DNA from: a virus
Lineage: Duplodnaviria > Caudoviricetes
Strand: one strand, 5' to 3'
IMG/VR virus record: IMGVR_UViG_3300033076_000337
Location: 1 to 27,535 of that record
DNA: 27,535 nt
Of this stretch, positions 6,691-27,535 are shown in pieces; positions within the stretch are counted from its first letter, which is position 1, and each line of letters opens with the position of its first letter. Under the pieces are notes generated by a model. It worked only from the letters and a program-made list of their open reading frames with translations. It searched no databases and was not told the DNA's origin. The position numbers and the translations under genes are program-made.

Positions 6691-6893
6691 TGTAAGCCCC
6701 ATTTAATTTTAAGCCACACACGTTCGTGAATGTAATAATCAATGCTTAGTAAAATGTGCAATGCAGTTGCAAAGCCAGTGGCACTAGCAATGTCTCCAGT
6801 AAACAGATACGTCCATAAGATAGTAAACAACCATGCAGTAATACGATAAGTGATCATTCTGACCACTGTGCGCTTATGTGTTTCTTGGATCAT
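6687..6893 (-). CDS. DUF2061-like small membrane protein
   Basis: 'ETHKRTVVRMITYR...YYIHERVWLKIKWG' fits the DUF2061 pattern, with two hydrophobic segments. ATGA overlap with queE. Confidence 0.7.
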   Translation of the reverse strand: MIQETHKRTVVRMITYRITAWLFTILWTYLFTGDIASATGFATALHILLSIDYYIHERVWLKIKWGLQ

Positions 6894-7747
6894 TTGCCCC
6901 ATCCATTTCCCCAAAGGTCGACATGTAGACGTGGACTATAGTTGTAGCCTTTGCTACATGCCCAGTCAGCAACTCTAACTCTATTCTGCTCGTAAGGAGC
7001 AACAACACCACCTTGTGGCATTACATACACAGGACCAGCAAAGCCCACAGCGCGATATTGTGCAACAGCACGATCTACTTCTGCAAAGTGTTCTTCTGTT
7101 TCTACAACAAACTTCAAGTAAGTAAAGCCGTAGTCTTGGTATGTACGCACAATCTCTGGACGGATAGCTTCATCCCATGCTTCACCGCTGGCGCTTAGTT
7201 TAGGACTAACACTAAATGTAATTTCGTTACCAGCAATGTCGCCCCAGTCTAACAAGTAGTCGATAAACTTTCCTTGTAGTTGTTGAGTACCGTTTGTTTC
7301 AAAAGTTAAGTTACGTAGATCTGCCATGCGTGGATGCGACAGCAATTCTTCATATGCACGTTGCCAACCTAGCAATGGTTCACCGCCAGTAATAACTAGA
7401 TGTACGTCATTGCCATTGTCTTGTACCCACTTGTTGTTGGGTGTTAGTGCCAACAGCTTGTCTACTAACTCTTCTGTAGTGTATGTTGGGCTAAGTTCCT
7501 TAAATGCAGGATGCCAACTTGCATAACTGTCGCAACCAGTATTAACTAGAGGCAGTTCTTCAAACGTGTTGTACATGTGTACAATCTGTGCAACGTCATC
7601 TGCTTCTGTACTCTTCTCGCCGGGCTTGCAACCAAATCCAGCACAAGTAAAGTTACAGCCGAATGTACGTAAGAATACACTAGGCACACCAACAAAGCGT
7701 CCTTCGCCTTGCAAACTATAAAATTTCTCAGATACCTTGATCTTCAT
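6890..7747 (-). CDS. queE: 7-carboxy-7-deazaguanine synthase (radical SAM)
   Basis: 'EKFYSLQGEG...G.PSVFLRTFGCNFTC', 'GCDS', 'VITGGEP', 'ETNG', 'SVSPK', 'PRLHVDLWG'. Confidence 0.92.
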   Translation of the reverse strand: MKIKVSEKFYSLQGEGRFVGVPSVFLRTFGCNFTCAGFGCKPGEKSTEADDVAQIVHMYNTFEELPLVNTGCDSYASWHPAFKELSPTYTTEELVDKLLALTPNNKWVQDNGNDVHLVITGGEPLLGWQRAYEELLSHPRMADLRNLTFETNGTQQLQGKFIDYLLDWGDIAGNEITFSVSPKLSASGEAWDEAIRPEIVRTYQDYGFTYLKFVVETEEHFAEVDRAVAQYRAVGFAGPVYVMPQGGVVAPYEQNRVRVADWACSKGYNYSPRLHVDLWGNGWGK

Positions 7748-8135
7748 ATTCTTTCCACTTCCATCCTAATTGTTTTAAATCGTTTTCAATCTCTTCTGTA
7801 ACTGTGCCTTCGCTAACACTAGGTCTTGCATTAGGGTCACGAGCTTGCTCGTCTAAGTCATCATCCCCACGCATACCACTACAGTAAAAATCCATGTAAT
7901 CTTCATTGCGGGCACCTAGGCCAGCAACAAAGCCGCCTGCCCAACGCCATGAACACGACCATTCATTGTCGCCTTTGAGCACAGGCAGGAATTCGGTTTC
8001 CTTGTACCATATGATGTTACACAAGGCCGCATAGAGGTTTTGTGCATATCCGTAGTCTTGCCTAATCTTGCTAATTATAGCAGGGCAAACAATAATGTCG
8101 TCACTGAGACTTACAGTTTCTTTGAGGTCGTCCAT
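7728..8135 (-). CDS. conserved phage hypothetical protein (YAQNLYAALCN...WSCSWR...DYMDFYCSG)
   Basis: 135-aa ORF with its own promoter, overlapping the queE start. Confidence 0.8.
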   Translation of the reverse strand: MDDLKETVSLSDDIIVCPAIISKIRQDYGYAQNLYAALCNIIWYKETEFLPVLKGDNEWSCSWRWAGGFVAGLGARNEDYMDFYCSGMRGDDDLDEQARDPNARPSVSEGTVTEEIENDLKQLGWKWKEYEDQGI

Positions 8136-8140
8136 AGCGT

Positions 8141-8169
8141 ATTATACTTTGTTTTGCGTGATACGTCAA
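8141..8169 (-). promoter_or_regulatory. sigma70 promoter TTGACG-17-TATAAT, probably giving a leaderless mRNA
   Basis: The -10 box ends 5 nt before ATG 8135 and no SD is present. Confidence 0.75.
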
Positions 8170-8741
8170 GGCCACATTTTCCTACATGCATCAATAATTT
8201 GTTGATTACGGATAAACGCTCTATCAACTAAACCAATTTGCTTGTCAAACCATTCGGCAGTAACACTGGCACTAGTCGGATTGGGAATACTAATTTTGGC
8301 TGTACTGTCTGGACCTTCACGCACAATACCAATATTATGTTTGTGCAGTAGCTTAACCATTTTGTCATTGTAACTGAGACAATGCATGTACACCCAATTG
8401 TATTTTCTATTTTGGCACCAACGCAATGCAAACAGTAACAAGTCACTGCCGGCACCTTTACGTTGGTAACGCTTATCGATACTTAACCCTAGCTCTGCTT
8501 CATTGGCATTGTTAATAGCAATGTGGCAAATACCCACTATGTTACCAGACAAGTCTTTAACAGCAATAATAGTATCAACGTCTGCCGCGGCCCATTCGTC
8601 TATTAACTTGTCTATGATTTCCTTAGGAGCACAATAGCCAAACCTACACAATAGACTTTCGTCATCTAGGTTCTTTAAGTGCTCGCGATAGATTTCCCAC
8701 TTGTCGGTGTTAAGGACAAATGGGTGTGTAATATTAGACAT
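8166..8741 (-). CDS. GNAT-family N-acetyltransferase
   Basis: 'AELGLSIDKRYQRKGAGSDLL' is acetyl-CoA motif A (QxxGxG); 'CLSYNDKM' is motif B. Confidence 0.85.
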   Translation of the reverse strand: MSNITHPFVLNTDKWEIYREHLKNLDDESLLCRFGYCAPKEIIDKLIDEWAAADVDTIIAVKDLSGNIVGICHIAINNANEAELGLSIDKRYQRKGAGSDLLLFALRWCQNRKYNWVYMHCLSYNDKMVKLLHKHNIGIVREGPDSTAKISIPNPTSASVTAEWFDKQIGLVDRAFIRNQQIIDACRKMWP

Positions 8742-8961
8742 TAGACAGGAAGTTAGCCACAGACTTCATTTCTTCTGGGTTAAGAAAAAATTCGTAAGTG
8801 CTATCATTGATTAGTTCTCCCTTGGTGTTAAACTCTTCTCTAACGAAGTAAACAGCCTTAAGGTCGGTTGGTCGCAATATATCATTGATCTTAACTGTCA
8901 TTTTAAAACTAGGAGTGTCTGTGATAACTGCTTCACGGGTGTTTAAATTAAATGTACTCAT
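8734..8961 (-). CDS. hypothetical protein, 75 aa
   Basis: ATG 8961 lies 1 nt after the HIT stop. Confidence 0.7.
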   Translation of the reverse strand: MSTFNLNTREAVITDTPSFKMTVKINDILRPTDLKAVYFVREEFNTKGELINDSTYEFFLNPEEMKSVANFLSNV

Positions 8962-8962
8962 G

Positions 8963-9352
8963 TTACGCTTTCTTATAATTGGCTTTGCCAGGAATAACTC
9001 CGCGGACTCCGCCAGTTGGATCTTCGCAATCACCGTGATAGCGAGGAATTAAATGTACATGCGGCCAGTCAACAGTCTGTCCTGCCGCCTTACCATAGTT
9101 TAGGCCAATGTTAAAGCCGTCCCATTCGCCGCCCTTAACCATTTCTCTTCCATGGTTTACTGCATCTTCAAATGCATCGTTTAATACTCTTGTGTTGTTG
9201 TACTTAGGTACAAATAGCAAATGGCCATAGCTAACTGGATACTTGTCTCTATAAACTGCCACGTGGAAATCTTCCCATACTAGGTCAGTCCACGGTGCAG
9301 TACTATCTTCTTTGTCGTCAGGTATACCTGGAAAAATCTTCTCGTCACGCAT
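8963..9352 (-). CDS. HIT-family nucleotide hydrolase
   Basis: 'DKYPVSYGHLLFVPK', 'GFNIGLNYGKAAGQTV.WPHVHLIPR'. The first triad His is replaced by Trp. Confidence 0.9.
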   Translation of the reverse strand: MRDEKIFPGIPDDKEDSTAPWTDLVWEDFHVAVYRDKYPVSYGHLLFVPKYNNTRVLNDAFEDAVNHGREMVKGGEWDGFNIGLNYGKAAGQTVDWPHVHLIPRYHGDCEDPTGGVRGVIPGKANYKKA

Positions 9353-9527
9353 TTTTAATCTCACTGAATCTCGCCAAGAACGCATCAATCAAACATTCAT
9401 ACATTTGTTCTGTACGTTCATTTGAATACGTTACCCATACACCTGCATCGTTCTGATATACCATTTCAACCTTAAAGGTTTGAAAGTTGTTACCTTGCCA
9501 TCTGCTTCCTGGATCTACTCTATTCAT
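9345..9527 (-). CDS. small hypothetical protein, 60 aa
   Basis: ATG 9527 follows the PRTase stop. The ORF-track start at 9641 overlaps the PRTase. Confidence 0.65.
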   Translation of the reverse strand: MNRVDPGSRWQGNNFQTFKVEMVYQNDAGVWVTYSNERTEQMYECLIDAFLARFSEIKNA

Positions 9528-9546
9528 CGTTCTACCATATTTTAAA

Positions 9547-10044
9547 TCATTCCCACCAGTTCTCCCAGGGGAATACAATCCATTTGTCGTCTTCTGCTTT
9601 GTTAATATAACTAGCAGAATAGTCGACTCGTTTAAATTCACTAGCTTCGTTGTTAATTAAAACAGCAAAGCGAACATTCTCATGCCATACTTCGTTCCAT
9701 GCGACATCGTGTGGAAAGCAACCACTGGGCCAGTCTTGCTTGATCCAGTTTAGTGTTGCACCACTGTCGTTAATATCATCGACAATGAGAATGTTTTTAC
9801 CTGCTAACGCATCTTCGGCCATCCACAAATTGCTTTCTGGACCAAGCTCACTGCCATCACGCAAACTAACGTTTAGTGTATGCAATGGAATTTGCATCCA
9901 ATGACTTAGCATAGTTGCAGGAATAAGTCCGCCCCTAGTAAGTCCAACAATATAGTCTGGTCGCCAGCGAGTCATTGTAATCTGTCTTGCAAGATTTGCA
10001 ACATAACTCTTTAGCGTTTTATCGTCTACATACACCTTGTTCAT
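9547..10044 (-). CDS. type I phosphoribosyltransferase (purine/Gpt-like)
   Basis: 'IVGLTRGG', PRPP-binding loop 'ILIVDDINDSGATL', C-terminal 'WIVFPWE'. ATGA overlap. Confidence 0.9.
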   Translation of the reverse strand: MNKVYVDDKTLKSYVANLARQITMTRWRPDYIVGLTRGGLIPATMLSHWMQIPLHTLNVSLRDGSELGPESNLWMAEDALAGKNILIVDDINDSGATLNWIKQDWPSGCFPHDVAWNEVWHENVRFAVLINNEASEFKRVDYSASYINKAEDDKWIVFPWENWWE

Positions 10045-10505
10045 TTGCTTAGTCCTCTTAGCATCCATTCGGCCAACATGTCACGAATTTCAGGATATTT
10101 TTCCATTAGGTCGTCATTGGTTGACATAGTCATAAACGCACGTTTAATCATATGTACGTCATTTACAAACTCATCCCAATCAATAGTGTGTTCTATAGTT
10201 TTAAAGATAACCTTTTCATTGTCTGCTTCAATTGATAGCTTAGGCTGTGATAACGTAAACGTACCATTCCAGTTACTGTTAGTACCAATAGTATAAGCAG
10301 AAGTAGCAGTAGTGGATGATCCTACTGCACCTGCGGTCAGCGTAGTGTATTGAGAATTCCAAGTTGAAGCCGAAGTTGACGCCATAGTAGTTGTTAAACT
10401 AGATTGTAAAGTGTCAATCTCTTGTTGACTCAAACTGATAGTAATGCTATCATCCACCGTCCAGTTATCTACATACTGTGGTGTAGCTGGAAATTTCTTC
10501 TTCAT
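10041..10505 (-). CDS. hypothetical protein with a Thr/Ser-rich low-complexity middle, 154 aa
   Basis: Starts 1 nt after the folE stop and is coupled to the PRTase. Confidence 0.75.
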   Translation of the reverse strand: MKKKFPATPQYVDNWTVDDSITISLSQQEIDTLQSSLTTTMASTSASTWNSQYTTLTAGAVGSSTTATSAYTIGTNSNWNGTFTLSQPKLSIEADNEKVIFKTIEHTIDWDEFVNDVHMIKRAFMTMSTNDDLMEKYPEIRDMLAEWMLRGLSK

Positions 10506-10506
10506 G

Positions 10507-11187
10507 TTATCTCTTGCAGTTGTTTACAATGTTCATGAATTCATTGCGTACAGCAGGTTCATGTTTAAAGCAACCACCTAATTTACTTGTAACAGTACTA
10601 GATCCTGTGTCTTCTACACCACGCGATTTAACGCAATAGTGTTGGGCATCAATCACAACAGCAATGTCATCTGTTTCGAGAATGTATTGCAATGCGTGAT
10701 AGATTTGTTCTGTTAGACGTTCTTGAATCTGCGGACGCTTGCTAAAGTATTCAACCACACGATTGATTTTACTTAGGCCTAAAACCTTTTGCTTGGGAAT
10801 ATAAGCAACAGTGGCCAAGCCATCAATAACAACAAAGTGATGTTCACAATTACTTTGGACATTGACGTTACGTTCAATAACCATTTCGTCGTATTTCATT
10901 TTGTTATCTACAGTTGTACACTTAGGAAATGCTTCGTAGTCTAGACCCCAAAAGATTTCGTTGACATACATTTTTGCCACACGCTTGGGTGTTTCAATAA
11001 GACTGTCATCGGCGAGGTCTAAACCCAATACCTGCATGATGTGGGTAAAGCTCTTTTCAATCTCGTCGATTTTATCTTTACGATCCATATTGTGCTGGAA
11101 CGTAGGAGTTTCCACGCCCATTGCTACTAGATGCTCATGTACACGTTGACCCAATTCTGGGTCGGTTTTTGTCTTGTTATATGACAT
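10507..11187 (-). CDS. folE: GTP cyclohydrolase I
   Basis: 'ETPKRVAKMY', 'SNCEHH', 'GLSKINR', 'RPQIQERLT', 'HYCVKSRG'. Confidence 0.97.
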   Translation of the reverse strand: MSYNKTKTDPELGQRVHEHLVAMGVETPTFQHNMDRKDKIDEIEKSFTHIMQVLGLDLADDSLIETPKRVAKMYVNEIFWGLDYEAFPKCTTVDNKMKYDEMVIERNVNVQSNCEHHFVVIDGLATVAYIPKQKVLGLSKINRVVEYFSKRPQIQERLTEQIYHALQYILETDDIAVVIDAQHYCVKSRGVEDTGSSTVTSKLGGCFKHEPAVRNEFMNIVNNCKR

Positions 11188-11228
11188 ATTGATATCCTTC
11201 CTTACACGGATGTTAAATTTGAATTGTA

Positions 11229-11248
11229 GTGCTACCGTTGTGTAGCAC
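11229..11248 (-). other. stem-loop in the folE leader (GTGCTAC-N6-GTAGCAC)
   Basis: Perfect 7-bp inverted repeat in the 63-nt intergenic gap. No U-tract. Confidence 0.55.
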
Positions 11249-11250
11249 AG

Positions 11251-11721
11251 TTATTTAACATTGTTCTTTAAATTTTCAGCTTCAGCTACACGCTTACGTA
11301 GACTGCTGGAGCTAAAGCTATGATCTCTACCATTAAACACTAGCTCAATACCACGTTGCTCACATTCCATACGGCCTGTAAAGTTTTTGTCGCGATACTC
11401 TACTCCCAGTATTCTAACATCAATAGGAAGTATGAGCAAGAGGTCAACCAAGTCTTGTTCGGTATTATACACAACAATTTCGTCCACATAGCGAACAGCG
11501 GCCAATTGGATTTGCCGTTCGACTATGCTTTGAATTGGTGCGTTCTTTTCTGGACGATCCCATTGTGCATTGTTTTGCAATCCAGCAATGAGATAGTCAC
11601 AGTGATTTTTGGCTTCGGCTAGCATTGCTATATGGCCAGCATGTAGCATATCAAATTGGCTAAAGGTAATTCCTATCTTTAAGCCTTTGTCTTTGAGTTC
11701 TCTAACCTTGCTAAAAATCAT
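11251..11721 (-). CDS. cytidylyltransferase-like (TagD/RfaE-II HxGH family) nucleotidyltransferase
   Basis: 'FSQFDMLHAGH', 'SIVER', 'YVDEI', 'RDHSFSSSSLR'. Confidence 0.9.
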   Translation of the reverse strand: MIFSKVRELKDKGLKIGITFSQFDMLHAGHIAMLAEAKNHCDYLIAGLQNNAQWDRPEKNAPIQSIVERQIQLAAVRYVDEIVVYNTEQDLVDLLLILPIDVRILGVEYRDKNFTGRMECEQRGIELVFNGRDHSFSSSSLRKRVAEAENLKNNVK

Positions 11722-12797
11722 TTAATGTTCCTTAGAATACCATCTGCACTAAAGAAGTTGTGTTTAACAAGATCCTTAGTTTGCACAATAGTTTCAAAGT
11801 GACCTTGATTCTTAAGAGCAGTCATAGTTGTACGAATGTAATCAACCATTCTATCCTTGTAATTCAAGTAACTGTCAAAACTTTCTGTCCATCGCGAATC
11901 GTACTTAAAGTCTGGCGGATACATTTCTGTATAGCTTAACCTATTGGGCATCATAGGAAATGAATTAACACACAATGCTTCATAGCAACTAATACCTAAA
12001 GTCTCCTGCAAGTTAGCACTAAACACAATCCTACTACGACCTAATAGTTCGTGGTATTCATGTTTTGTTAGTTGTTGCTCTTGTGCTACTACCCAATTGT
12101 ATTCAGGCATAGCGGCGGCAAGATCCTTAAAGATATCTAATTGCTTTTCAGGAGCAATACGATGTGGGAATAGGATAATGTCTTCTTTAGGCAAGTCTTT
12201 AAACGGTGCTAAAGTCTCGTCTAAGTATTCCATCGGCCAGCCACTGCGTACAATCTTACCTGTTTGCAATTGTTCTTTGATCCACCACTCTGCACCGTCT
12301 GCAAAAACTTCTGCAAACATTTTGATATGGAAGTCGGTGGCAAAGTAGTTATGGTCAACAGCACTAAAGAAACTAATCTCTGCGTGTCTAACCCATTTAG
12401 CATCGCCTATCAGTCTGCCCAAGAAGTCTTGCGGGTCATAACTGCCAGCATGCCATAAAGCATGAATAGTTACAGGAATCTGTAACAGTTCGCTCATGTA
12501 CTTTAGGTTAATGATACCTGGGTGCCAAGCATCAGTAAACAAAAAGTGATCACCGGGACGAACGGCTCCGTCACAAAATAAACGGCCCATTTGCTCAACT
12601 TGTACAGACTTATATATGTTAGTCCCACCAAAATTAAGAAAAGCGCCTGGAGTGGTAGCACTAGGGATATCCGTAGGGCCGTCAATAATTTGAACATTGT
12701 GTCCTGCCTTTCGTAGTAGTTCAGGTACATGAGTCTTCCATTGACCCGTGTACCTTGTTTCTACGCTTTCTAAATCAACTAGAAAGACGTTCGACAT
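11718..12797 (-). CDS. GT-B glycosyltransferase (GT4-like)
   Basis: 'FPHRIAPEKQ' and 'SANLQETLGISCYEA' (E-x7-E donor-binding motif). TAATG coupling at 12797. Confidence 0.85.
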   Translation of the reverse strand: MSNVFLVDLESVETRYTGQWKTHVPELLRKAGHNVQIIDGPTDIPSATTPGAFLNFGGTNIYKSVQVEQMGRLFCDGAVRPGDHFLFTDAWHPGIINLKYMSELLQIPVTIHALWHAGSYDPQDFLGRLIGDAKWVRHAEISFFSAVDHNYFATDFHIKMFAEVFADGAEWWIKEQLQTGKIVRSGWPMEYLDETLAPFKDLPKEDIILFPHRIAPEKQLDIFKDLAAAMPEYNWVVAQEQQLTKHEYHELLGRSRIVFSANLQETLGISCYEALCVNSFPMMPNRLSYTEMYPPDFKYDSRWTESFDSYLNYKDRMVDYIRTTMTALKNQGHFETIVQTKDLVKHNFFSADGILRNIK

Positions 12798-13087
12798 TAT
12801 TGCTTCCACGCACTTTTATACACACCAACGTGGATCTTCAGCTTCTTAGGACTGCGATCCTCTGTTAGTTGAATTACTGCATCAAATGTTACAGAATTCT
12901 CTTTGTATTGTTCCTCTGGAAGGTCATACCCATAAATGAGACGATCCTTCTGCAAGTCACGCAAGTATGCGTGGAACAAGTCTGCTACTAGGTAACCACT
13001 ACCTTCGTACATAACACCATCATATGGCTCGGCAATTTTAAGTAGGTCATACTTAATATTGTCCATGCTAATCATGGGTCTAATCAT
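12797..13087 (-). CDS. hypothetical protein, about 96 aa
   Basis: ATG 13087 follows the upstream stop at 13092. Exact start uncertain. Confidence 0.65.
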   Translation of the reverse strand: MIRPMISMDNIKYDLLKIAEPYDGVMYEGSGYLVADLFHAYLRDLQKDRLIYGYDLPEEQYKENSVTFDAVIQLTEDRSPKKLKIHVGVYKSAWKQ

Positions 13088-13091
13088 TGGC

Positions 13092-13457
13092 TTAGTATTC
13101 GATGTATGCGCCATTTTCGTCGTCCTCGGAAATATCGATCCGGACACTACGTCCTGGATACTTAGATGAGATTTGATTGTATAAGTCTTCTGACATCATT
13201 TCACAACTCTTAAAGTCTAGTTGTAAAACGCCGTCTTTATATAAGTTCTCTAACCAGCGTTTAAACTGGATGAACTCAATGTCCCTGTCGTCGTGTGTTA
13301 CACTGATCCATACCTTAAAGTGGAAAATGTGACGATGTGGGTAGCCTAAAAAGCTAACATCATATTCGTCGCCAGTTGCCAACTTAGGGTCAGTTAGTGC
13401 GGCCGGGTATTTGTGAATACCTTCTTTTTGAAATTTAACGTAAATCCATTTTTGCAT
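13092..13457 (-). CDS. dpdL: QueD-paralog T-fold protein, DpdL-like (candidate CDG decarboxylase)
   Basis: His ligands 'EGIH...LGYPHRHIF'. LxxxHRHxF replaces the QueD CxxxHGH motif (the DpdL signature as I recall it). Also 'SCE' and 'EDDENGA'. Located in a dpdA/folE/queE context. Confidence 0.7.
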   Translation of the reverse strand: MQKWIYVKFQKEGIHKYPAALTDPKLATGDEYDVSFLGYPHRHIFHFKVWISVTHDDRDIEFIQFKRWLENLYKDGVLQLDFKSCEMMSEDLYNQISSKYPGRSVRIDISEDDENGAYIEY

Positions 13458-13459
13458 GG

Positions 13460-13978
13460 TTACTCCTTAATAGGCGTGTCGCCAATATAGTCTTTCCAGT
13501 CAGTGTATACTTCTCTGGATTTCAATGTGTCAAGCGGATGGCACCAGACTCCTGGGTTACTGTGTCCCCAAGTAGTGTCATCGATCTTCAACGTTGCATT
13601 GTAGTTGTACAACTTAATGTACGGCAACTTAACACTAATCATAGGAATGAATGTAAAGAATTCATTCCATCCTTCTTCGTGAATGTCGTTAGCAAATTCA
13701 ACACCAAAGTCTAATGTAACCCAATACCCTTGTTTTAGTAATGGTGTAATCATAGCGTCCCACTTGCGCCAATCTTCTTGGCTCTTAGGTTGGAAACTTT
13801 GACTGGTACCAAAGTACAAATGTCTTAGGTTATTATCAGTGGCGTGTTTGATAATTTCTTCTACTGGACGGACTCCAACAACAAACAAAGTCTTTTCATT
13901 CTTCATTGCTGTGTTCTCGACTTCCGTGCCGACGAAGTAAATTACTTGCTGTCGTCCTTGTGTATCAAGTTCTAGCAT
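13460..13978 (-). CDS. conserved phage hypothetical protein (GTEVE...KIDD...SNPGVWCH), 172 aa
   Basis: Tightly packed between the dehydrogenase and the DpdL-like gene. No family recognised. Confidence 0.8.
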   Translation of the reverse strand: MLELDTQGRQQVIYFVGTEVENTAMKNEKTLFVVGVRPVEEIIKHATDNNLRHLYFGTSQSFQPKSQEDWRKWDAMITPLLKQGYWVTLDFGVEFANDIHEEGWNEFFTFIPMISVKLPYIKLYNYNATLKIDDTTWGHSNPGVWCHPLDTLKSREVYTDWKDYIGDTPIKE

Positions 13979-14873
13979 TGTCGTTCCATTTAATGTACCC
14001 CCTGGAATATCCAGCAGGTCTGTTTAATCCGTCAGTAAAAGCCTGTTGCCACTCTGTATCTCTATTATACTCCTTGGACCAGAATCTGTCAACATTAATG
14101 TCTCCATTAGTTATCCAGTATTCAGCATCCTTCATACACTGATAAAATTTATCAGTACGTGGACTAGGAAATATAACAGTACATGCCTTCCAAAGAAGTT
14201 TTGCAAAGTTGGTCTGCACTTCTTTTTCTACACCCATAACAACTAAGGCTTCGTTGTTTAACATGTCTTTGTTAAAAACATCGTTGTTAGGACTCAAATC
14301 AATTACAACATCAAATGTGCCTTCGTATTGTGGTTTTAGTACACTACCCCAAAGTTCTTTGTTACTGTGTCCATATACAGTAATATCAAAATCAATGTGA
14401 TTGAGTAAGATAGTATTATAAGCCACCCATGCTAGAAACCCGCTACCTAGAATTAAGAGTCTTCGTCCCGGGCCGCTTCGTTCGGCAATTTCTCGAATGG
14501 GTTGTTGTACCACGTTAATGCCGCAAGCCACTGGCTCCAAAATATATCTTGGTAAAGGCTCTGGAACCTTAACATACTCTCTAGTACGAACATTGTATTC
14601 GTCTGCGTATCCTGGTTCTCCTCTTGTTGCGACATAGTCACCTACCTTTACATCAGTTACATCTTGGCCTAGTAGGATTACTTGACCCAAACCTTCATGC
14701 CCTTGCATGTTCAATGGTAAAGGTCCAAAGTTACCCTGCATCATATCAATGTCACTCCGGCAAACGCCGGTCATAACACTACGTACACGGATATCGGTTG
14801 GACCTAAATCAGCAACAACAAATTCAGTTTCAATAAATTCGCCGTTGCCTGTAGTTGCTAACACTCTATTCAT
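13965..14873 (-). CDS. Zn-dependent medium-chain dehydrogenase/reductase (sugar-alcohol dehydrogenase-like)
   Basis: 'GVCRSD', 'GHEGLG', 'VKVGDYV', 'LEPVAC', Rossmann-like 'ILGSGFLA'. No structural-Zn Cys4 lobe. ATGA overlap. Confidence 0.88.
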   Translation of the reverse strand: MNRVLATTGNGEFIETEFVVADLGPTDIRVRSVMTGVCRSDIDMMQGNFGPLPLNMQGHEGLGQVILLGQDVTDVKVGDYVATRGEPGYADEYNVRTREYVKVPEPLPRYILEPVACGINVVQQPIREIAERSGPGRRLLILGSGFLAWVAYNTILLNHIDFDITVYGHSNKELWGSVLKPQYEGTFDVVIDLSPNNDVFNKDMLNNEALVVMGVEKEVQTNFAKLLWKACTVIFPSPRTDKFYQCMKDAEYWITNGDINVDRFWSKEYNRDTEWQQAFTDGLNRPAGYSRGYIKWNDNART

Positions 14874-15748
14874 AATGCTAATTGTTCGTGGATCCAAATG
14901 TCTTGTGCCAGTTGATTCTGCCAAAACTCTTTATTGTCTTTATTCTTTAGTGCATGTTGGATCATAGCTTTGTAAGCACTTTCTGGGCACAGGCCTAGCT
15001 CGTGTTTGACTGCACTATTTTTCATTCCAAAGCTAATGTAAACATCATCAGCTTTATCGTCTTTCCAGTTTGCACTAATGGTCCACTTAGTATCGCCGTT
15101 GACGAATTCCATTTTACAGAAGTCGTCTACATCATACACACCTTGTTTGTTTACAGTACCATACTCAGTATCTGTAATTGTATTTAGGTCATGATTCTGT
15201 AAAGCCTGAAGTTGTATTCTATTGCCTTTAGTGTAATCTGTCAAGGCCACGTAGTAGCTTAACAAGTGAGGAACCAAGTCCCTACTAACACCACCATATG
15301 CCAAGGCCCTGTTAGTGAACCAACTACCTGGGTTAGGTACTCGGTTCTTACTGTTCCAAATAACATGTACAGTTGAACTTTGGTCAGCAAGGCGTTTGAA
15401 GTCCTGCAAAGTATCACGGTACTGGTTATTCTTTACCATCATGAATTTAGTATTTGGAAAGTCTTCTACTAAACGCTTCCAAGACATTGCATCTTTGACT
15501 CCTGGCTTTTCAACAAATATAATGCCAGCAAAGTTAGCCACTTCCCTAGCAATTTTTTCGTGTGTAAAGTTTGGAGTGCAAATGTTAACAGTATCAAAAT
15601 AGCCATGTGTAGTGATGGCATCTTGTACAGTTTCAAAATCGGCATCGCGATTTGGGTCAACTGTGACGACAGTATGACCCAATTGTTCTAATACTGGGCG
15701 ATAGACTGCGTTGCCAAAGCCCATGCCCACTATTAAACTAATTGTCAC
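14870..15748 (-). CDS. Gfo/Idh/MocA-family NAD(P)-dependent oxidoreductase
   Basis: 'IVGMGFG', 'ICTPNFTH', 'IFVEKP', 'GGVSRDLVPH'. GTGA overlap with the dpdA stop. Confidence 0.9.
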   Translation of the reverse strand: MTISLIVGMGFGNAVYRPVLEQLGHTVVTVDPNRDADFETVQDAITTHGYFDTVNICTPNFTHEKIAREVANFAGIIFVEKPGVKDAMSWKRLVEDFPNTKFMMVKNNQYRDTLQDFKRLADQSSTVHVIWNSKNRVPNPGSWFTNRALAYGGVSRDLVPHLLSYYVALTDYTKGNRIQLQALQNHDLNTITDTEYGTVNKQGVYDVDDFCKMEFVNGDTKWTISANWKDDKADDVYISFGMKNSAVKHELGLCPESAYKAMIQHALKNKDNKEFWQNQLAQDIWIHEQLAL

Positions 15749-17274
15749 AGAAGTCCTTCTAACAATTGTTCGCCCTGCTCAACTGTTTCAGGATCATCAA
15801 ACATGTTACTGTCATTGTCCTTACCAGCATCGTCAACTTCGAACAAGCTATTAAATCCTGCAACTGTACTCTTAAGAGTCTTAGCGCCGTTAAAGTTTGC
15901 CAACAAGTCTTGTGCTTTGTCTAACTCTGTATATGGAGTTTGACTTGTAAACACACGATTAACAAGTTCGTTCATGTAAACTACATTACGTGGAACCCAT
16001 TCGCTTAACTCGTCTGCACCTTTTTTAACTTTGTGCCAAGCTGATGGATCTGGTTGATGCATTGCACAAGCCGCATCGTTTAATGCGTTTGCACGTTGTA
16101 CACTTTCAATGTGCTGATACACATTGTGACCCATCATTAAGAAGTAGCTGAAGCTATCCCAAGAAGTCTTGCCTTCTTTGCCTAACTTGTTCAGCATACC
16201 TGGCGCATACCAACACAAGTCACCCATAGTCATTCTTTCGCCTACTGGACTGTTCCATGGCCAAGCAATCTTACTACCGCTCAATTTCTTATTATCGATA
16301 GCCTTAGTCATCAAATAGCTAAAGCGATCATTTTGATGAACGTGTTGTGTATATACTTGTCCATATGCTGTGGCTAGGAATGGGCTAGCACAGTCAAACG
16401 TAACCTTCATATTAGGGTTAACGTGTTGGCGAATATTACGTTGAACGGCCGTTAATAAGCAGGCAAGTTCAAGTTTGCTAGTACCCAAGAAGTGAATAAC
16501 ATCACGACCAGGCTCTAACAGTTTCTCGTCACGTAGTTTAATTAAGCGGCGCAACATGAGGTCTACGTCCTTCATGTTGTTACCTCCCATAGCCCAACCT
16601 TCGAATGGATAGTGCTTAACTGCTTCGTACCAAATCTCTGCGTCAACGTTATTGCCGCCTTGCAGAACGTTCAAGAACTTAGTCTTACCTTGACGATGCT
16701 TTAAGAAGAAGTCGTTGTTAAACAATGTTCCCTTCAAGCAATCGTTAAAGTCTTTGAGTCCTGTACGAGGTTGGTTAATAGGATTACTTGCCCATGTAGG
16801 TAAGTCAAGTACCATGCTATAATCAGCAGTAAACTCTAACCAGTTAAGGATAGCCATACGTGTTTTATCTGCTTCTCCGACGTAGCCAGCGTCGCCTTGC
16901 TTTTCCCAGAAGTGCTTCCAGTCAAAGTTAATAACACCTTTACCAATTTGGAACCCGCCAGAGTCTCCAAGGATAAACGTGTTAGGCTTGTCACGTTGTT
17001 GTACCATGCTTTCCTGCACCCAAGACTTTTTCAGGTCTAATTGTGCGTGTCCTGCTGAGTACAATGCGTGACTATAATGAAAGTATGCTTTTTCCTTATT
17101 AAGGAAGTTCATACCTTCAATACCATTCTCAAACTCAGCAGGAATACGGCTAGCTTCAATATACTCGCCTTCCTGTTGTTTTGAGATAAAGGTATTGTAG
17201 AATCCGCTAATACTAGGCAAGAATATTGCATAGTCTTTATTGCGCGGATCTAAGTCCACTGTTGTTTTACTCAT
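15745..17274 (-). CDS. dpdA: DpdA/TGT-family 7-deazaguanine DNA transglycosylase
   Basis: TGT-barrel motifs 'GDSGGFQ', 'MVLDLP', 'LNVLQG', 'IHFLG', 'TFDCASP', 'HN'. Lacks the tRNA-TGT CxCxxC zinc site. Adjacent to the clamp, polymerase and folE/queE. Subclass not determined. Confidence 0.85.
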   Translation of the reverse strand: MSKTTVDLDPRNKDYAIFLPSISGFYNTFISKQQEGEYIEASRIPAEFENGIEGMNFLNKEKAYFHYSHALYSAGHAQLDLKKSWVQESMVQQRDKPNTFILGDSGGFQIGKGVINFDWKHFWEKQGDAGYVGEADKTRMAILNWLEFTADYSMVLDLPTWASNPINQPRTGLKDFNDCLKGTLFNNDFFLKHRQGKTKFLNVLQGGNNVDAEIWYEAVKHYPFEGWAMGGNNMKDVDLMLRRLIKLRDEKLLEPGRDVIHFLGTSKLELACLLTAVQRNIRQHVNPNMKVTFDCASPFLATAYGQVYTQHVHQNDRFSYLMTKAIDNKKLSGSKIAWPWNSPVGERMTMGDLCWYAPGMLNKLGKEGKTSWDSFSYFLMMGHNVYQHIESVQRANALNDAACAMHQPDPSAWHKVKKGADELSEWVPRNVVYMNELVNRVFTSQTPYTELDKAQDLLANFNGAKTLKSTVAGFNSLFEVDDAGKDNDSNMFDDPETVEQGEQLLEGLL

Positions 17275-17496
17275 TTATCGTCTTTCGTCATCTTCCCAAT
17301 GATCAAGGCTTTCTCGATCATGTTCATGCTGTAGTCTTTGCAACCTAGCAATCTCGTCTCTAAGCATTAGCTTTTGTTTCTTCATGTCATGTAACTTTGT
17401 TTCTTGTACATGAGGATGATTTCTTTCCATGTCTGCAATTTGTTTGTCTAACAAATGATGAGATTCTGTCAGATGTTTGATGCGGTTTTCGTACAT
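17275..17496 (-). CDS. DUF465/YdcH-like small coiled-coil protein
   Basis: 'H..LDKQI...MKKQKLMLRDEI' pattern. GGAG SD. Confidence 0.7.
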   Translation of the reverse strand: MYENRIKHLTESHHLLDKQIADMERNHPHVQETKLHDMKKQKLMLRDEIARLQRLQHEHDRESLDHWEDDERR

Positions 17497-17508: not shown

Positions 17509-18249
17509 TTAACGAGTCATTGCAGGCAGAATGTAATTGTACAAACCGATGCCGCTGTCAACGCTAATCATACAAGCGCCCTGATTGCTGAAGTTAACAG
17601 CACAAATACCACCCATGCCCAACTTGAGAATGTTCAAGAATTGGTTAAGTGGGAAACTCAAGTCACCTTTGATGTTGCCACCAACGTTGTTAGCGAATGT
17701 ACGCTTACCAAAGTGGCTACCACCGTTTGCGCTACCAAGTTCAAACACTAAGTTGCCATTGTCTGTGCGTACAGTAAATGTTGGCTCAATGCTAGAGTAA
17801 ATGCTAGCGGCCTGTGCTAAGTCTTGTACCTTTGCCTTAGTCGGTTCAAATGTAACGTCCCATGTGGCGCCTTTGAACTTAACTGTTTGGATCTGTGTAT
17901 CGATTACTTCTTTGCTCATCAAACGATACTTGTCCGAGTTACCATCTGGATCTTTGAACACTAGTGTTTCTGGCAAGTCAACGCCGTTGCGGTTAGTCTT
18001 AACTACATCAACTGTTGTGCCGTCTTTGGCATACAGGTTACAAACACCGTTCAAGAAACCCAAGTTACCCATACCAAATTCGCCGACAAAGTCGCCTTCT
18101 GGTTTGTGTAGTTTGGCATTCAAGATAACTGTCTTGTCCTGATCAATTGCCGCAATCTGAGTTTCCTCTGCGGTCCCTGTTACCTTGAGACTGTCAATAA
18201 TGCCAAGTCCGCTGGTATGTCTTACGATATCTAATACGATGTCTTTCAT
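17509..18249 (-). CDS. DNA sliding clamp (gp45/PCNA-like)
   Basis: 246 aa, directly downstream of the B-family polymerase. Beta-rich two-domain pattern ending 'YNYILPA'. AAGGAG SD. Called from size, position and general resemblance. Confidence 0.7.
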   Translation of the reverse strand: MKDIVLDIVRHTSGLGIIDSLKVTGTAEETQIAAIDQDKTVILNAKLHKPEGDFVGEFGMGNLGFLNGVCNLYAKDGTTVDVVKTNRNGVDLPETLVFKDPDGNSDKYRLMSKEVIDTQIQTVKFKGATWDVTFEPTKAKVQDLAQAASIYSSIEPTFTVRTDNGNLVFELGSANGGSHFGKRTFANNVGGNIKGDLSFPLNQFLNILKLGMGGICAVNFSNQGACMISVDSGIGLYNYILPAMTR

Positions 18250-18301: not shown

Positions 18302-20947
18302 TTATTCAAATAATAGGTTGAACGTGTTTTTCATTTTAGTTGACTGCAAGTCCCAGTTTAGAACACCGAGCAAGTTGTCAATCTTGTTATCAATAATAGT
18401 CTCTTCCATGGCCTCTTCGTCAAACGGAAGTTCTTTGAACCATTGTGGCAACCTTTGTTCATCTGTTGGATAAGCTAGGCTGGTCATGTTCAATGGATTG
18501 CTCTTTAGTTTGCAAACAACAACTTTCATACCGTCAACTGCGTCCATACTAAATTGGTCTCCATGCATCTTTTTAATGCGGTTCCAATTGATAGCCGCCA
18601 TTGCATGTCCAATTCCACATTTACCTGTTTTATTGAATACTGCGGTATGTTGTGTTAAGTTGTTTACACGCTTTGGAGTTCCTTTTTCCCAGGCAGGTTT
18701 GGCCTTAAAGTCTTTTCTAAATTCAAGAATCTTGTCTAGAATCTCTTGACGTTCTACACCAGTTAGTAACATCAATAAAATCTCTTCAAGAAACTTTTGC
18801 ATGAATTCAGGAGTGTCTGCTCTCTTAAGGTCCAAGCCCATGGCTTTTACTTCGCCTGGTTCACCATCCAAATCTTTACGCTTGCCTTCCTTATCATAGA
18901 TAAGAACAGCATAACGCTTTTTGGTAATGAACAAGCCTTTACTAGCAACAACTTCTCGACCAGCTTTAATTGGTGCCGCATATACGCTAGGAACATTAAA
19001 TGCCTTATTCATAAATGCTGGAAAGGTATCATTAACTTCGTTACTTACAGTATCGTACAGTTCAACAATCTTTTCCTTGCTCCAATCAATCTCGCCACGA
19101 CTTACTTCGCCTTTGAATACAGGCCACGCACTAAAGTATACCGAGTCAGTATCACCGTAGATAATAGTTTCACCTACGTGATTGTACTCGCCTGTAAACA
19201 TAGCATTAACCTGTGCGGCCATGTGTCTAGCAATACAACGACCTGTTAGTGTAGTTGATTGTCCTAAGCGTTGGTCGAAGAACCTACTACCTGCGTTCAA
19301 CAAAGCGCCGTATGCAGAGTTCAAGTTAATCTTCTTAACTAATTGTCGCTTGTCCCAGAACTCAAATTCTTTTTCGTTGTCGATACAACTCTTTGCTTTC
19401 TTTTGTAGTTCCTTACGTTCACTGTACCAACGTTCAAGCAAGCCTGGAATAACACCCTTCTCGGTAAAGTTAAAGATTGTACCATTGGCACTGATCATTA
19501 AGTTTTGTCCGCTGAGGAAAATCATTTCAAATGCTTGTTTTCCACTGACCTGTTCACTACGTCCGTTCTCCCAGTCAATAATAACATCAGTGCCAATGTC
19601 CTGATTCATTACTGCTTCGTATTCCATCGTAGCAAAACGTCCGTCCCAACAATCAGCAAAGCTCTTGCCAGCAGCCATACCATCGCGAATCATCTTCTTG
19701 GTCATGTCCAAACGAAGTTGTCCCACGATAGTTTCTGGACTCATGTTAAGCGCACGAATAACAGACGGATACAGACTGTTCAAGTCCATACTGCCAATCC
19801 ATTCGTGTATACCCTTTTTAGGATACGCAACATAAGCACCTGCGGCCTGTGTTTCAGCATGGTCTCTTGTTCTGTCAGGGACAATTAGTCCACGATTGTG
19901 TGCTTCTCTAATAACAGCTTGGTCAGTAACTGCAACAGCACCCATTGTTGTTTGGAACAATACACAGTTAGCATGTGCCAAAACGTTTACTAAGTCAATG
20001 TACTGTAGTTTCTTGTCCAGCTTGACCAACAGCATAACGTCTTGTCTGTTATAAGCAATAAACTTTTCAAAGTCATTGTTGTATAACTGATCCAACGTGC
20101 CTTCATAGTGAACTTTAGTTTCGCCTAGCTCATATTCTCCAACATAGTCAAGTCGATATGTGTGAAGTTCATGATATGTGTACTTGCGATACAGTTCAAG
20201 ATAGTCAAGGTGTACACGACCTATCAAGTCATAGGTAACAGCAGTCTTACCATACTTTTCAAATTCACGTGCCTTAGGCTTTTGTCCCCACAAGCAGAAA
20301 CGCTTGCAATGGTCTTGGCCCATTACTCGTGCAATACGATTAAAGGTATATGGAATGTCGAAGCCTTCACTGTTCCATCCGCTTAAGACATCTGCATCGT
20401 CCACCAACTGAATGAACATGTCTAACATTTCTTCTTCAGTGCTACACAATACAGTATTCTCAAACCTGTTACAGATTTCTTCTGCTTGCTCAGTTGTAAG
20501 CCTGTCCGGCTTCAAGCATACAGTAATAAGTCTTTCCAACCAACTCAAGTACAATGTAATACTGGTAATGTTGTTGAATGGATCGCTAGGGTCCGCAAAA
20601 CCTTTCTCCTTGTCGAAGTTAACTTCAATGTCGAAGAAACAAACGTTTAGTTCAGGAGTATCGCCGTTGGGATACTCGTCTTCTAAACAACGGAACACTG
20701 GCTTGATATCACTTTCGTATAGCTTCTTGCCGCTGTAGATACGCTTTTCTTTTTCAAACGCCTTGTGATTGTTGACAGCAACTTTGCTCAGTGGCTGTCC
20801 GTAAATGCTTTTGTACTTGCCCTTGGCGTCAGGGTAATAAAACACATACTTGGCAGGAATGTCCTTGAACTTCCTTTGACCGTTGACACGCTCAACAACT
20901 TGAATTAAGTCTTTTTGTTTATTGTAGAATGCGTCTACGTAACTCAT
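18302..20947 (-). CDS. family B DNA polymerase (T4 gp43-like), 881 aa
   Basis: Exonuclease motifs 'FFDIE', 'WNSEGFDIPY', 'YNRQDV'. Polymerase motifs 'DLNSLYPS', 'KKINLNSAYG', 'YGDTDS', 'KKRY'. Confidence 0.98.
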   Translation of the reverse strand: MSYVDAFYNKQKDLIQVVERVNGQRKFKDIPAKYVFYYPDAKGKYKSIYGQPLSKVAVNNHKAFEKEKRIYSGKKLYESDIKPVFRCLEDEYPNGDTPELNVCFFDIEVNFDKEKGFADPSDPFNNITSITLYLSWLERLITVCLKPDRLTTEQAEEICNRFENTVLCSTEEEMLDMFIQLVDDADVLSGWNSEGFDIPYTFNRIARVMGQDHCKRFCLWGQKPKAREFEKYGKTAVTYDLIGRVHLDYLELYRKYTYHELHTYRLDYVGEYELGETKVHYEGTLDQLYNNDFEKFIAYNRQDVMLLVKLDKKLQYIDLVNVLAHANCVLFQTTMGAVAVTDQAVIREAHNRGLIVPDRTRDHAETQAAGAYVAYPKKGIHEWIGSMDLNSLYPSVIRALNMSPETIVGQLRLDMTKKMIRDGMAAGKSFADCWDGRFATMEYEAVMNQDIGTDVIIDWENGRSEQVSGKQAFEMIFLSGQNLMISANGTIFNFTEKGVIPGLLERWYSERKELQKKAKSCIDNEKEFEFWDKRQLVKKINLNSAYGALLNAGSRFFDQRLGQSTTLTGRCIARHMAAQVNAMFTGEYNHVGETIIYGDTDSVYFSAWPVFKGEVSRGEIDWSKEKIVELYDTVSNEVNDTFPAFMNKAFNVPSVYAAPIKAGREVVASKGLFITKKRYAVLIYDKEGKRKDLDGEPGEVKAMGLDLKRADTPEFMQKFLEEILLMLLTGVERQEILDKILEFRKDFKAKPAWEKGTPKRVNNLTQHTAVFNKTGKCGIGHAMAAINWNRIKKMHGDQFSMDAVDGMKVVVCKLKSNPLNMTSLAYPTDEQRLPQWFKELPFDEEAMEETIIDNKIDNLLGVLNWDLQSTKMKNTFNLLFE

Positions 20948-22194: not shown

Positions 22195-22200
22195 TATTTA
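22195..22200 (-). promoter_or_regulatory. TAAATA late-promoter-like box upstream of the lysozyme
   Basis: Resembles the T4 late TATAAATA element and is followed by an AGGAG SD. It overlaps a stop codon, so it could be chance. Confidence 0.45.
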
Positions 22201-23376
22201 CCAAATATACGGAAACAGTTGCTCACTTTTAGTATGTCTAATTGCGTCCAGGTCTTTCAAGTACTTACGAGTAGATTCAATGTCATTGCTTTGATTTTTA
22301 AGCAAATTGTCCACTAAATCAGGCATTTCAGAAGTTAAATTATGCTCTTTTAACCACTGTCTGTGAAAGCGGGTCATACGGCTTGCTTCTTCCCTATGTT
22401 CAGCAGGCAGTAAATCAGCTTTTAAGTTTTCAGGGAAACTGATAACGTTGTATTGATAGTTGTGTATACCCGTAGCTGTGTATATTGCACGTTCAATCTT
22501 GTCTAAGTCCAAGATGTTTAGTATGCTAATGCTAGGGGTAATTTTAATATCAATGTGCGGGCACTGGTTTTTAACCTTTATTAGGTTCTCCAGTGTTTGT
22601 TTCCAACTTGCACCCCAGCGAATGTAGTCAAATCTATCCCATACGTTGTCAACGCTGACCAGCATACTGATATGGCTAAAATTGTTCCATAAGTCTAGTA
22701 CGTTTTTCTTCTTGTACTCTAAATTACTAAGGTTAGTAATGTACGAAATGTTAACTTGCTTTTTCTGTTCAGCAAAGTATTCTAGAATTTCGTAGTGTTG
22801 ATCTGTTACTAACGGTTCCCCGCCTGCAAAGGTGACGTTTTCTACATCGTCTAAATGTTCAGTTGTTAATTGTTCCATGATATCCAAGCTCAGTGTTCTG
22901 TCGTGCCCGCTGTCTCTGCCTAGCTTAATCCAATCAGTGTGCCACCGGCTACTAAATGTTGGACCACAGCTAACACAAGCTAGGTTACAAACGTTGCTAA
23001 ATCTAATGTCCAGGTATTTAAGTTTAAAATCACTAAAGTCAGTGGGATGATACTTAAAGCTATTAATACGCATACTGTCCATGCCCACAGCTTCTTGTTC
23101 GTAGCACTTATAGCAGGTACTTACAGGTTCCCCTGCCAGCATCTTACGTTTGATTTCCTTGTATTCATCGCCGTTAACGATGTCGATGATTTTAGTTTTG
23201 TTTAAGTTGCCAATTGGCCGCATAGGATCGCTCAGACAGCAAGGGAAAGCCTTGCCATCCGGCCATGCATGTACATGTACCCATGGTAAAGTACAGATGC
23301 TTTTATTGATAGTAGGATCTAAGGATCTCGTACCACTCGGGGAATGTTTGTTTAAAGCTCTGTTTACGATATTCAT
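22198..23376 (-). CDS. radical SAM protein with N-terminal twitch/SPASM-like domain
   Basis: 'CTLPW...PCC...CYKC', 'CNLACVSC', 'GGEP'. Start uncertain (23376 or 23388). Confidence 0.9.
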   Translation of the reverse strand: MNIVNRALNKHSPSGTRSLDPTINKSICTLPWVHVHAWPDGKAFPCCLSDPMRPIGNLNKTKIIDIVNGDEYKEIKRKMLAGEPVSTCYKCYEQEAVGMDSMRINSFKYHPTDFSDFKLKYLDIRFSNVCNLACVSCGPTFSSRWHTDWIKLGRDSGHDRTLSLDIMEQLTTEHLDDVENVTFAGGEPLVTDQHYEILEYFAEQKKQVNISYITNLSNLEYKKKNVLDLWNNFSHISMLVSVDNVWDRFDYIRWGASWKQTLENLIKVKNQCPHIDIKITPSISILNILDLDKIERAIYTATGIHNYQYNVISFPENLKADLLPAEHREEASRMTRFHRQWLKEHNLTSEMPDLVDNLLKNQSNDIESTRKYLKDLDAIRHTKSEQLFPYIW

Positions 23377-27033: not shown

Positions 27034-27535
27034 TTGTTTGTGTCTTGTGATGTTGGCTTCCCAACTCACCGTTGTCCAGTTTGTTCCATTCTTTGCCACA
27101 GCAGGTACTACATTGTCTGCTACGCATATTGTGGCCTTTGTAAATGCTACGTGGCAGGAACCTATCAAAGAACTGCCCTTTGAGAATTTGTGGCAATGTG
27201 TTCTTATGCAAACTTAGTGTATCCATGCCGCCTGCTAGCTCGATCATTTGAATACTTGCATCATCACTAATGTTCTTGAACGCCGCACCTTGTTTAGCAA
27301 CTTCCCACGGACGGTCGTCACTGATATGACGCCACGGCTCACCACCGATAAAGCAACATGGGAATACATGGCCGCTGGCACTAACAAATATTTCATTGAG
27401 TTGGTTGTTGCCACCCTTTTCGTGATGCTGTGCCCTGCAACTAACTTCGATGTCATTGTGCTTGAACTTGACCCATTCGTTTTTCTCGTTGTCCCATTCT
27501 CTGTGCTCAAGGCTAATCTGTTGCATCTTATCAAA
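27026..27535 (-). CDS. 3' part of a radical SAM/SPASM-like protein truncated by the window edge
   Basis: 'SC...EIFVSASGHVFPCCF...QCSTCCG' is a C-terminal twitch/SPASM Cys pattern. The frame stays open to the edge; the radical-SAM core itself is not visible. Confidence 0.7.
   Translation of the reverse strand, partial: FDKMQQISLEHREWDNEKNEWVKFKHNDIEVSCRAQHHEKGGNNQLNEIFVSASGHVFPCCFIGGEPWRHISDDRPWEVAKQGAAFKNISDDASIQMIELAGGMDTLSLHKNTLPQILKGQFFDRFLPRSIYKGHNMRSRQCSTCCGKEWNKLDNGELGSQHHKTQTNG

Follow-up and report, generated by a model that had tools for sequence, protein, structure and literature searches.

Insertion of deazaguanines into DNA is a known form of phage DNA modification. We describe here a real and conserved variant of it, in which the transglycosylase gene dpdA is accompanied by a glycosyltransferase (GT) gene, as found in the virus record IMGVR_UViG_3300033076_000337 (positions 1-27,535, 27,535 nt; this whole stretch is the window). 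Among the closest described systems is that of Cellulophaga phage phiST, which like the window encodes FolE, QueE, a protein with the DpdL motif and a DpdA, and in which QueC and QueF were not found (PMC10516641). PhiST differs from the window in having no GT of this family and a DpdA3 that is barely similar to ours (hhalign 14.6%, E 0.002). The same study defines LxxxHRHxF, which replaces the CxxxHGH of QueD, as the signature motif of DpdL, and it lists PA5oct and ACP17 homologues of the window DpdL as well as the PA5oct homologue of the window DpdA (QCG76197, given as DpdA3 in supplement DS1). In both PA5oct and ACP17, the GT stands between two genes listed there, yet "glycosyl" starts no word of the main text of PMC10516641 and "glycosyltransferase" does not occur in its supplement.

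Gene order and protein identities of 34-57% place the window close to PA5oct and Paride, which are Wroclawvirus jumbo phages. Wroclawvirus DNA (PA5oct, Paride, MIJ3) reportedly resists restriction (PMC12191111; PMC7824862), that of PA5oct resists five enzymes, which was taken to indicate modified G (PMC12191111), and deazaguanine insertion has already been predicted for PA5oct (PMC7824862; PMC13282480). These phages carry homologues of dpdA, GT, dpdL, queE, the 172-aa gene and the Gfo and MDR oxidoreductase genes of the window; the string "deaza" does not occur in the PA5oct and Paride papers. Neither the original prediction, made from the window sequence, nor our literature searches (mostly papers outside subscription journals, with partial coverage) knew of a glycosylated deazaguanine in phage DNA. 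A ribosylated 7-deazaguanine has reportedly been seen in a phage, a report that our searches did not find. The study 10.64898/2026.05.19.726188 concerns dPreQ0.

Linkage of the glycosyltransferase to dpdA

Fold and motifs bear out the original assignment of the GT to the GT-B class. Its model (predicted local distance difference test, pLDDT, 87) matched GT4/GT5-like structures, best 6kih (Z 23.6, root-mean-square deviation (rmsd) 3.2, 317 aligned residues), with BshA at Z 22.2. The motifs HAG (H115-A116), R-x4-K (R212/K217) and E-x7-E (E264/E272), which we take to be the usual donor-site motifs of retaining GT-B enzymes, are kept in the family. Judged by model and motifs, the protein is a retaining-type GT-B enzyme.

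Two sets of IMG/VR loci were compared. The DpdA-found set holds 78 loci (drawn from the 80 best-scoring among 101 stretches; about 29 clusters at 90%), 58 of them with at least 5 kb downstream, and the GT-found set holds 80 loci (best of 434 in a partial scan; about 70 clusters), 52 of them with at least 7 kb upstream. The GT was present in all 58 dpdA loci and dpdL in 57 of them; in the reverse direction, both dpdA and dpdL were present in 52/52 GT loci. The coupling to dpdA proposed by the original prediction held for the GT; the Gfo-MDR pair proved optional (Gfo and MDR each in 19/58 dpdA loci, both in 18/52 GT loci).

These fractions lose force as support because the IMG/VR sets are made up of best-scoring loci from related phages, and independent carriers therefore weigh more. 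The GT family occurs in 22 cultured-phage records, seven of which were examined at locus level. It is flanked by dpdA and dpdL in PA5oct and Paride and by the DpdA2 gene and dpdL in ACP17, where the 172-aa gene is also found; it stands next to dpdA in X1 and BCSR5, and between dpdL and folE in Phosso, where dpdA is far off. BUCT-ZZ01, reached via dpdL, has the GT, here of another subtype, after dpdL. DpdA subfamilies differ among these phages, all of which carry the GT beside dpdA and/or dpdL. In addition, a second GT subtype, 22% identical, occupies the same slot; 7 of its 8 representatives have GalE in the vicinity, compared with 4/64 otherwise (the cases are not independent). We conclude that the GT is a core part of the deazaguanine module. 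Two loci (L031/L032, 14851-16756) have radical SAM genes after the second GT subtype, where GalE otherwise stands. In Xanthomonas phage PhiXhv-12 (L084, 6669-10755), Gat-QueC, annotated as an aminotransferase, is followed by PIG-L, a distant GT member and another Gfo, a set that is possibly a second glycosylated deazaguanine route.

Bacterial genomes provided a further kind of carrier. A scan of GTDB yielded 30 GT loci, of which 15, from 14 alphaproteobacterial genomes (L269-271, L274, L275, L277, L278, L280-286, L288), have a DpdA-family gene close by; the other 15 are mostly phage-like or short contigs within assembled bins. None of the 15 alphaproteobacterial loci contained clamp, folE, Gfo, MDR or cytidylyltransferase genes, and dpdL was found in five. 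Fourteen add one small gene family that resembles Vut_1/YhhQ; YhhQ is described as a transporter of the queuosine precursor preQ0 (PMC5372724). The common set would therefore be base importer, inserter and GT, and no other finding argues as strongly for a GT in the service of deazaguanine. Two points weigh on the other side: the Vut_1/YhhQ matches are weak (Pfam 3/3 tested, one above cut-off; NCBIfam 3/4, none above cut-off), and because ten of the 15 loci have no dpdL, the inserted base may differ there. Several cassettes have integrases or resolvases nearby, and in several a large gene beside dpdA has no Pfam, NCBIfam or PADLOC match. PADLOC gave no Dpd match with E <0.001 among 15 window proteins and 20 bacterial-cassette proteins (part of each locus was scanned).

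All long genes of the window are encoded on the minus strand. The genes named by the original prediction follow one another in the order given, behind polymerase and clamp-like gene (Table 1). They are not directly behind the clamp, since a DUF465 gene intervenes before dpdA, and several small genes without assigned function are interleaved in the run from folE to queE. The GTGA overlap joining dpdA and Gfo (15748-15745) and the ATGA overlap joining Gfo and MDR (14873-14870) were both confirmed; for the GT, the most likely start codon is ATG 12797, within a TAATG overlap. Profile searches agreed with the named Gfo (below the Pfam cut-off), MDR, cytidylyltransferase, FolE, QueE, phosphoribosyltransferase (PRTase), HIT and GNAT identities. 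Overall, the original observation is confirmed and its interpretation partly supported.

Table 1. Genes of the dpdA locus and its surroundings in the window
Feature	Position	Strand	Evidence and occurrence
QueE-like synthase of 7-carboxy-7-deazaguanine (CDG)	6890..7747	-	phrog_2076 E 2e-51; NCBIfam QueE models below cut-off; 32% to PA5oct QCG76203
GNAT acetyltransferase, rare neighbour	8166..8741	-	Pfam E 1e-10, above cut-off; the window clusters with two further loci
HIT protein, variable neighbour	8963..9388	-	Pfam E 7e-9, above cut-off; patchy
Purine-type PRTase, frequent, non-core	9547..10068	-	Pfam E 2e-15, above cut-off; 30/58 dpdA loci
FolE, GTP cyclohydrolase I	10507..11187	-	above NCBIfam cut-off
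Short cytidylyl/adenylyltransferase (TagD/HldE-like), loosely linked	11251..11721	-	Pfam E 5.8e-10; TIGR02199 below cut-off
Retaining-type GT-B glycosyltransferase (from model), core dpdA partner	11718..12797	-	fold, motifs and linkage
Small protein without family, start probably further in, subgroup-specific	12797..13147	-	43/58 dpdA loci, 3/52 GT loci
DpdL, proposed CDG decarboxylase, 121 aa	13092..13457	-	LGYPHRHIF
Conserved 172-aa protein, core in this phage group	13460..13978	-	57/58 dpdA loci, 52/52 GT loci
Zn-MDR dehydrogenase, optional, Gfo-paired	13965..14873	-	ADH_N E 2.8e-11, above cut-off; GVCRSD, GHE, EPVAC kept
Gfo/Idh/MocA oxidoreductase, optional	14870..15748	-	GxGxxG, EKP, DxxxH kept; Pfam E 1.5e-4, 22.9 bits vs cut-off 24
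DpdA-type guanine transglycosylase (PA5oct "DpdA3" group), 509 aa, FNSLF near C-terminus	15745..17274	-	fold and conserved Asp
DUF465 protein, variable neighbour	17275..17496	-	Pfam E 1.9e-12; patchy in relatives
Likely sliding clamp	17509..18249	-	phrog_223 processivity factor E 6e-4; 34% to same-position PA5oct gene
Family-B DNA polymerase, C-terminal NTFNLLFE	18302..20947	-	Pfam DNA_pol_B E 1e-40, phrog_262

The transglycosylase, its base and the replication machinery

Family libraries and a search against sequences of solved structures gave no match for the 509-aa DpdA, and the original call was upheld by its fold. For its AlphaFold model (pLDDT 88), all 49 matches listed by Foldseek were tRNA-guanine transglycosylases (TGTs; best E 1.9e-8). 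In the VIA structure search, which covered 48,161 chains, the top five matches were archaeal TGT (Z 17.7, rmsd 5.0, 298 aligned), QTRT2, bacterial TGT, DpdA (7ui4; Z 15.2, rmsd 4.6, 303 aligned) and Cap10, all of the TGT superfamily; unrelated barrels scored at most 11.4. D104 (DSGGxQ), D157 (LDxP) and D294 (FD) are invariant across an alignment of 53 sequences (the query and 52 of 120 hits listed), and presumably correspond to TGT D102, D156 and D280. The protein is 37% identical over its full length to PA5oct QCG76197. The modelled fold confirms it as a member of the TGT/DpdA superfamily.

A link to replication is suggested by a shared tail motif. The DpdA tail contains GFNSLFE (window about 15835-15855) and the polymerase ends in NTFNLLFE (18302-18325). 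The pattern F-x-x-[LF]-F, defined after inspection of these tails, occurs within the last 16 residues of 63/70 polymerases and the last 70 residues of 45/72 DpdAs, compared with 0/72 GTs and, as a control, 0.6% of 20,000 windows. It may be a clamp-binding motif of the kind known from T4-type motifs. A T4-like S/T-L-D/E-x-F/L-F stretch closes the DpdAs of ACP17, X1 and BUCT-ZZ01 as well as a second GT of BUCT. In this PA5oct-like jumbo phage, the dpdA block is likely a DNA-modification module linked to replication, and base exchange on DNA by its DpdA is likely as a prediction from gene position, tail motif and the restriction resistance of PA5oct.

The gene originally read as a QueD paralog is in fact dpdL. 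Its product carries the DpdL motif (Table 1), lacks the catalytic Cys of the QueD motif CxxxHGH, gave no PTPS match and shares 58%, 54% and 31% identity with the DpdL proteins of PA5oct, ACP17 and phiST, respectively. It follows that the window holds no QueD, and the presence of DpdL indicates 7-deazaguanine (DG) as the inserted base. FolE, QueD and QueE make CDG. FolE is encoded in 50/58 dpdA loci, and outside the locus a PTPS/QueD-family gene was found in three of four partial relatives and two in PA5oct. QueF was found in 0/5 genomes (the four partial relatives and PA5oct), and no full-length QueC match in these five, with short partial matches in 2/5, the relatives' contigs being incomplete. 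In Vibrio phage Bakedbeans (L090, 6212-7363), a DpdL domain is fused to the end of a 383-aa protein.

That the top fold matches of DpdA are tRNA TGTs, and that YhhQ carries a queuosine precursor (PMC5372724), would fit a transglycosylase that acts on tRNA, with the GT making a glycosylated queuosine-like tRNA base. We consider this very improbable. The dpdA gene lies behind polymerase and clamp and shares its tail motif with the polymerase, QueF and full-length QueC were not found in the five genomes, PA5oct DNA behaves as G-modified (PMC12191111), and bacteria with the cassette retain a separate ordinary tRNA TGT of their own (5/5 genomes tested).

Predicted glycosylation of deazaguanine and its alternatives

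On balance, we think it probable that the route runs from GTP via CDG to DG, followed by insertion through clamp-bound DpdA and glycosylation by the GT, giving a glycosylated 7-deazaguanine in DNA. CDG would come from FolE, QueE and a QueD whose gene lies elsewhere or in the host, DpdL would decarboxylate CDG to DG, and DpdA seated on the sliding clamp would exchange DG into new DNA. The GT would then move a sugar from a nucleoside diphosphate sugar onto the deazaguanine, before or after insertion. The sugar may be varied by optional genes (here Gfo and MDR; elsewhere GalE, UDP-glucose dehydrogenase or PIG-L deacetylase), and the likely purpose would be a shield against host nucleases. Because the dpdA-GT coupling is reciprocal and extends to unrelated carriers, the glycosylated deazaguanine first proposed for this locus is a sound prediction from gene content. 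If true, it would add a class to the known DNA hypermodifications and would give a name to the G modification of PA5oct and Paride, phages studied for therapy. Further, a role of the GT may explain why dpdA and dpdL of ACP17 alone yielded no product in E. coli.

Several observations weigh against this route. DG offers no hydroxyl as acceptor; the sugar would therefore have to be linked via N2, C7/C8 or a group made by the 172-aa protein, and GT chemistry on a hydroxyl-free base would be new. The GT fold does not name the acceptor, its nearest structural matches are enzymes with small-molecule or lipid substrates, and T4 alpha-glucosyltransferase ranks 39th of 50 matches (Z 16.9, rmsd 4.7, 301 aligned). 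The GT is acidic (net charge -13, family median -10), as is DpdA. The GT family was found in none of six of the ten records searched, namely the DpdL phages phiST, RHph_I1_18, Ahp1, Bakedbeans and D479, and Vibrio phage 2.275.O. In phiST DNA, dDG, the deoxynucleoside of DG, replaces all dG (deoxyguanosine), and neither DpdL nor DpdA3 was reconstituted (PMC10516641). Since phiST and others have DpdL without the GT, and phiST has plain dDG, the GT is dispensable for a DpdL system. Plain dDG would also account for the restriction resistance of PA5oct equally well.

The same findings fit plain dDG in DNA together with a GT that acts on free pterin, CDG or DG in order to store, detoxify or channel them, so that the sugar never enters DNA. 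The closest folds are small-molecule GTs, including pterin glucosyltransferases (5zer Z 19.8), and the acidic GT has no polymerase-like tail motif. HuiG of the huimycin pathway transfers a sugar onto a free 7-deazapurine (10.64898/2026.04.15.718813), as the GT is proposed to do on DNA; it differs in making a secreted preQ0-derived small molecule and in coming from clusters without dpdA. We nevertheless regard action on a free intermediate as unlikely. The bacterial cassettes keep GT, dpdA and the transporter-like gene mostly without any base-synthesis gene, and GT subtype and sugar enzymes differ among close phages, as would be expected of an exposed mark under nuclease pressure.

Known base GTs of phages raise the question of a second acceptor. 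T4 alpha- and beta-GT and the 5-hydroxymethylcytosine GTs of 10.1101/2023.12.21.572611 resemble the window GT in GT-B fold and sugar-enzyme neighbours; in that source, cytosine GTs depend on sugar enzymes encoded next door, either an epimerase or a kinase plus cytidylyltransferase. They act on a hydroxylated pyrimidine, whereas the window GT is partnered by a guanine transglycosylase and has T4 alpha-GT as a mid-rank fold match. The glycosylated phage bases in the literature surveyed are all pyrimidines, and the contigs of close relatives are merely 52-66% complete, which leaves room for genes acting on a second base or on the DNA backbone separately from deazaguanine. However, a thymidylate-synthase-family gene was found in none of four partial relatives and once in PA5oct, and the constant neighbours of the GT are deazaguanine genes. 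Tet_JBP gave 0/5 matches with an equally silent control and carries no weight. We see less than one chance in ten for such a second target.

Glycosylation of virion proteins or the host surface, with GT and sugar enzymes lying here by mere linkage, appears scarcely more probable. GT/nucleotidyltransferase clusters of jumbo phages have been predicted to serve surface polysaccharides (PMC7824862), and the cytidylyltransferase is TagD/HldE-like with copies elsewhere. On the other hand, the GT family is present as a single copy per genome, always in the dpdA locus (5/5 records), the dpdA-GT linkage persists in unrelated phage groups and bacteria, and no hydrophobic segment was detected in the GT.

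Glycosylated deazaguanine in DNA thus remains the reading that we favour. A wider proposal, a family of glycosylated purines with DpdA-inserted deazaguanine, a dedicated GT-B enzyme, exchangeable sugar enzymes that make the mark differ among phages (here Gfo-MDR, leading to a rare sugar) and a base-importing three-gene version on bacterial mobile elements, is, taken as a whole, less likely than not. Cultured phages hold the whole gene set, and the three-gene bacterial cassette would represent a minimal system for reconstitution.

Optional sugar enzymes and other neighbours

The original prediction had Gfo, MDR and cytidylyltransferase jointly building the sugar donor. This part is weaker, as the pair is optional and missing from the bacterial cassettes and the cytidylyltransferase is found in 3/52 GT loci. 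Among 1817 Gfo homologues, 80 loci were analyzed: the nearest recognised upstream family was dpdA in 79/80, and the next recognised gene was MDR in 79/80 (one contig ends there). With 5 kb available downstream, the GT was present in 50/51, the exception being L234, whose contig has dpdA-GT elsewhere. The pair was met only in dpdA/GT carriers. The 172-aa gene adjoins Gfo and MDR in all 11 Wroclawvirus records; in PA5oct, unlike the window, some 25 kb separate this trio from dpdA-GT-dpdL. Searches of ACP17, X1, Phosso, BCSR5, BUCT-ZZ01 and phiST found no Gfo; the count for partial contigs without a local copy was 2/15. A two-pattern scan of limited reach gave no Gfo relatives in GTDB genomes.

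Local Gfo presence changes 11 times on the DpdA tree, 13 times on the GT tree and 12 times on the clamp tree (FastTree, 72 representatives). Its presence thus fits the GT tree no more closely than the other two, and the trees do not show Gfo-MDR to be the dedicated donor pathway of the GT. The pair belongs to carriers of the dpdA/GT system, as an optional element that does not track the GT. E. coli YcjS and YcjQ presumably belong to the Gfo and MDR families. Like the proposed pair, they are two sugar dehydrogenases, working via 3-keto-glucosides (PMC11543891), but they are catabolic and require the isomerase YcjR. Tentatively, Gfo and MDR could carry out an oxidise-then-reduce epimerisation, a suggestion that may well be wrong. 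Other carriers have GalE, UDP-glucose dehydrogenase or PIG-L deacetylase nearby, and by analogy with cytosine GTs the varied neighbours look like exchangeable sugar tailoring.

The cytidylyltransferase is present in 33/58 dpdA loci. It was rejected as a core gene given its low frequency in GT loci and its position directly after the GT in 2/35 loci with both; library searches recognised no sugar kinase partner in the window. PRTase, HIT and GNAT, originally listed within the locus, turned out to be variable neighbours. For the 172-aa protein, libraries gave no family and Atlas scores were at most 0.87. Its gene lies directly before dpdA2 in ACP17 and after Gfo-MDR in PA5oct. A stripped-down QueE was not supported (hhalign vs QueE 0.2-0.6%), and a weak likeness (54%) to small genes ahead of the X1 and BCSR5 GT genes is a lead only. 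In these two phages (L083, 7335-8947; L086, 7137-8975), PAPS-reductase-like, deacetylase-like and small 172-aa-like genes precede the GT. Atlas returned no family for the small protein encoded at 12797..13147.

Predicted promoters (36 vs 38.3 by chance) and terminators (10 vs 11.2) showed no excess in the window, and a tRNA search of it found none. A 384-aa open reading frame at 546-1700 has a weak PADLOC DpdB match (E 0.034) that is probably due to chance. Besides family-B polymerase and likely clamp, library searches identified an endolysin, an exonuclease and a tandem array of four radical SAM genes with twitch domains (22198-27168), each above the NF033640 cut-off, with a fifth, SPASM-like open reading frame upstream.

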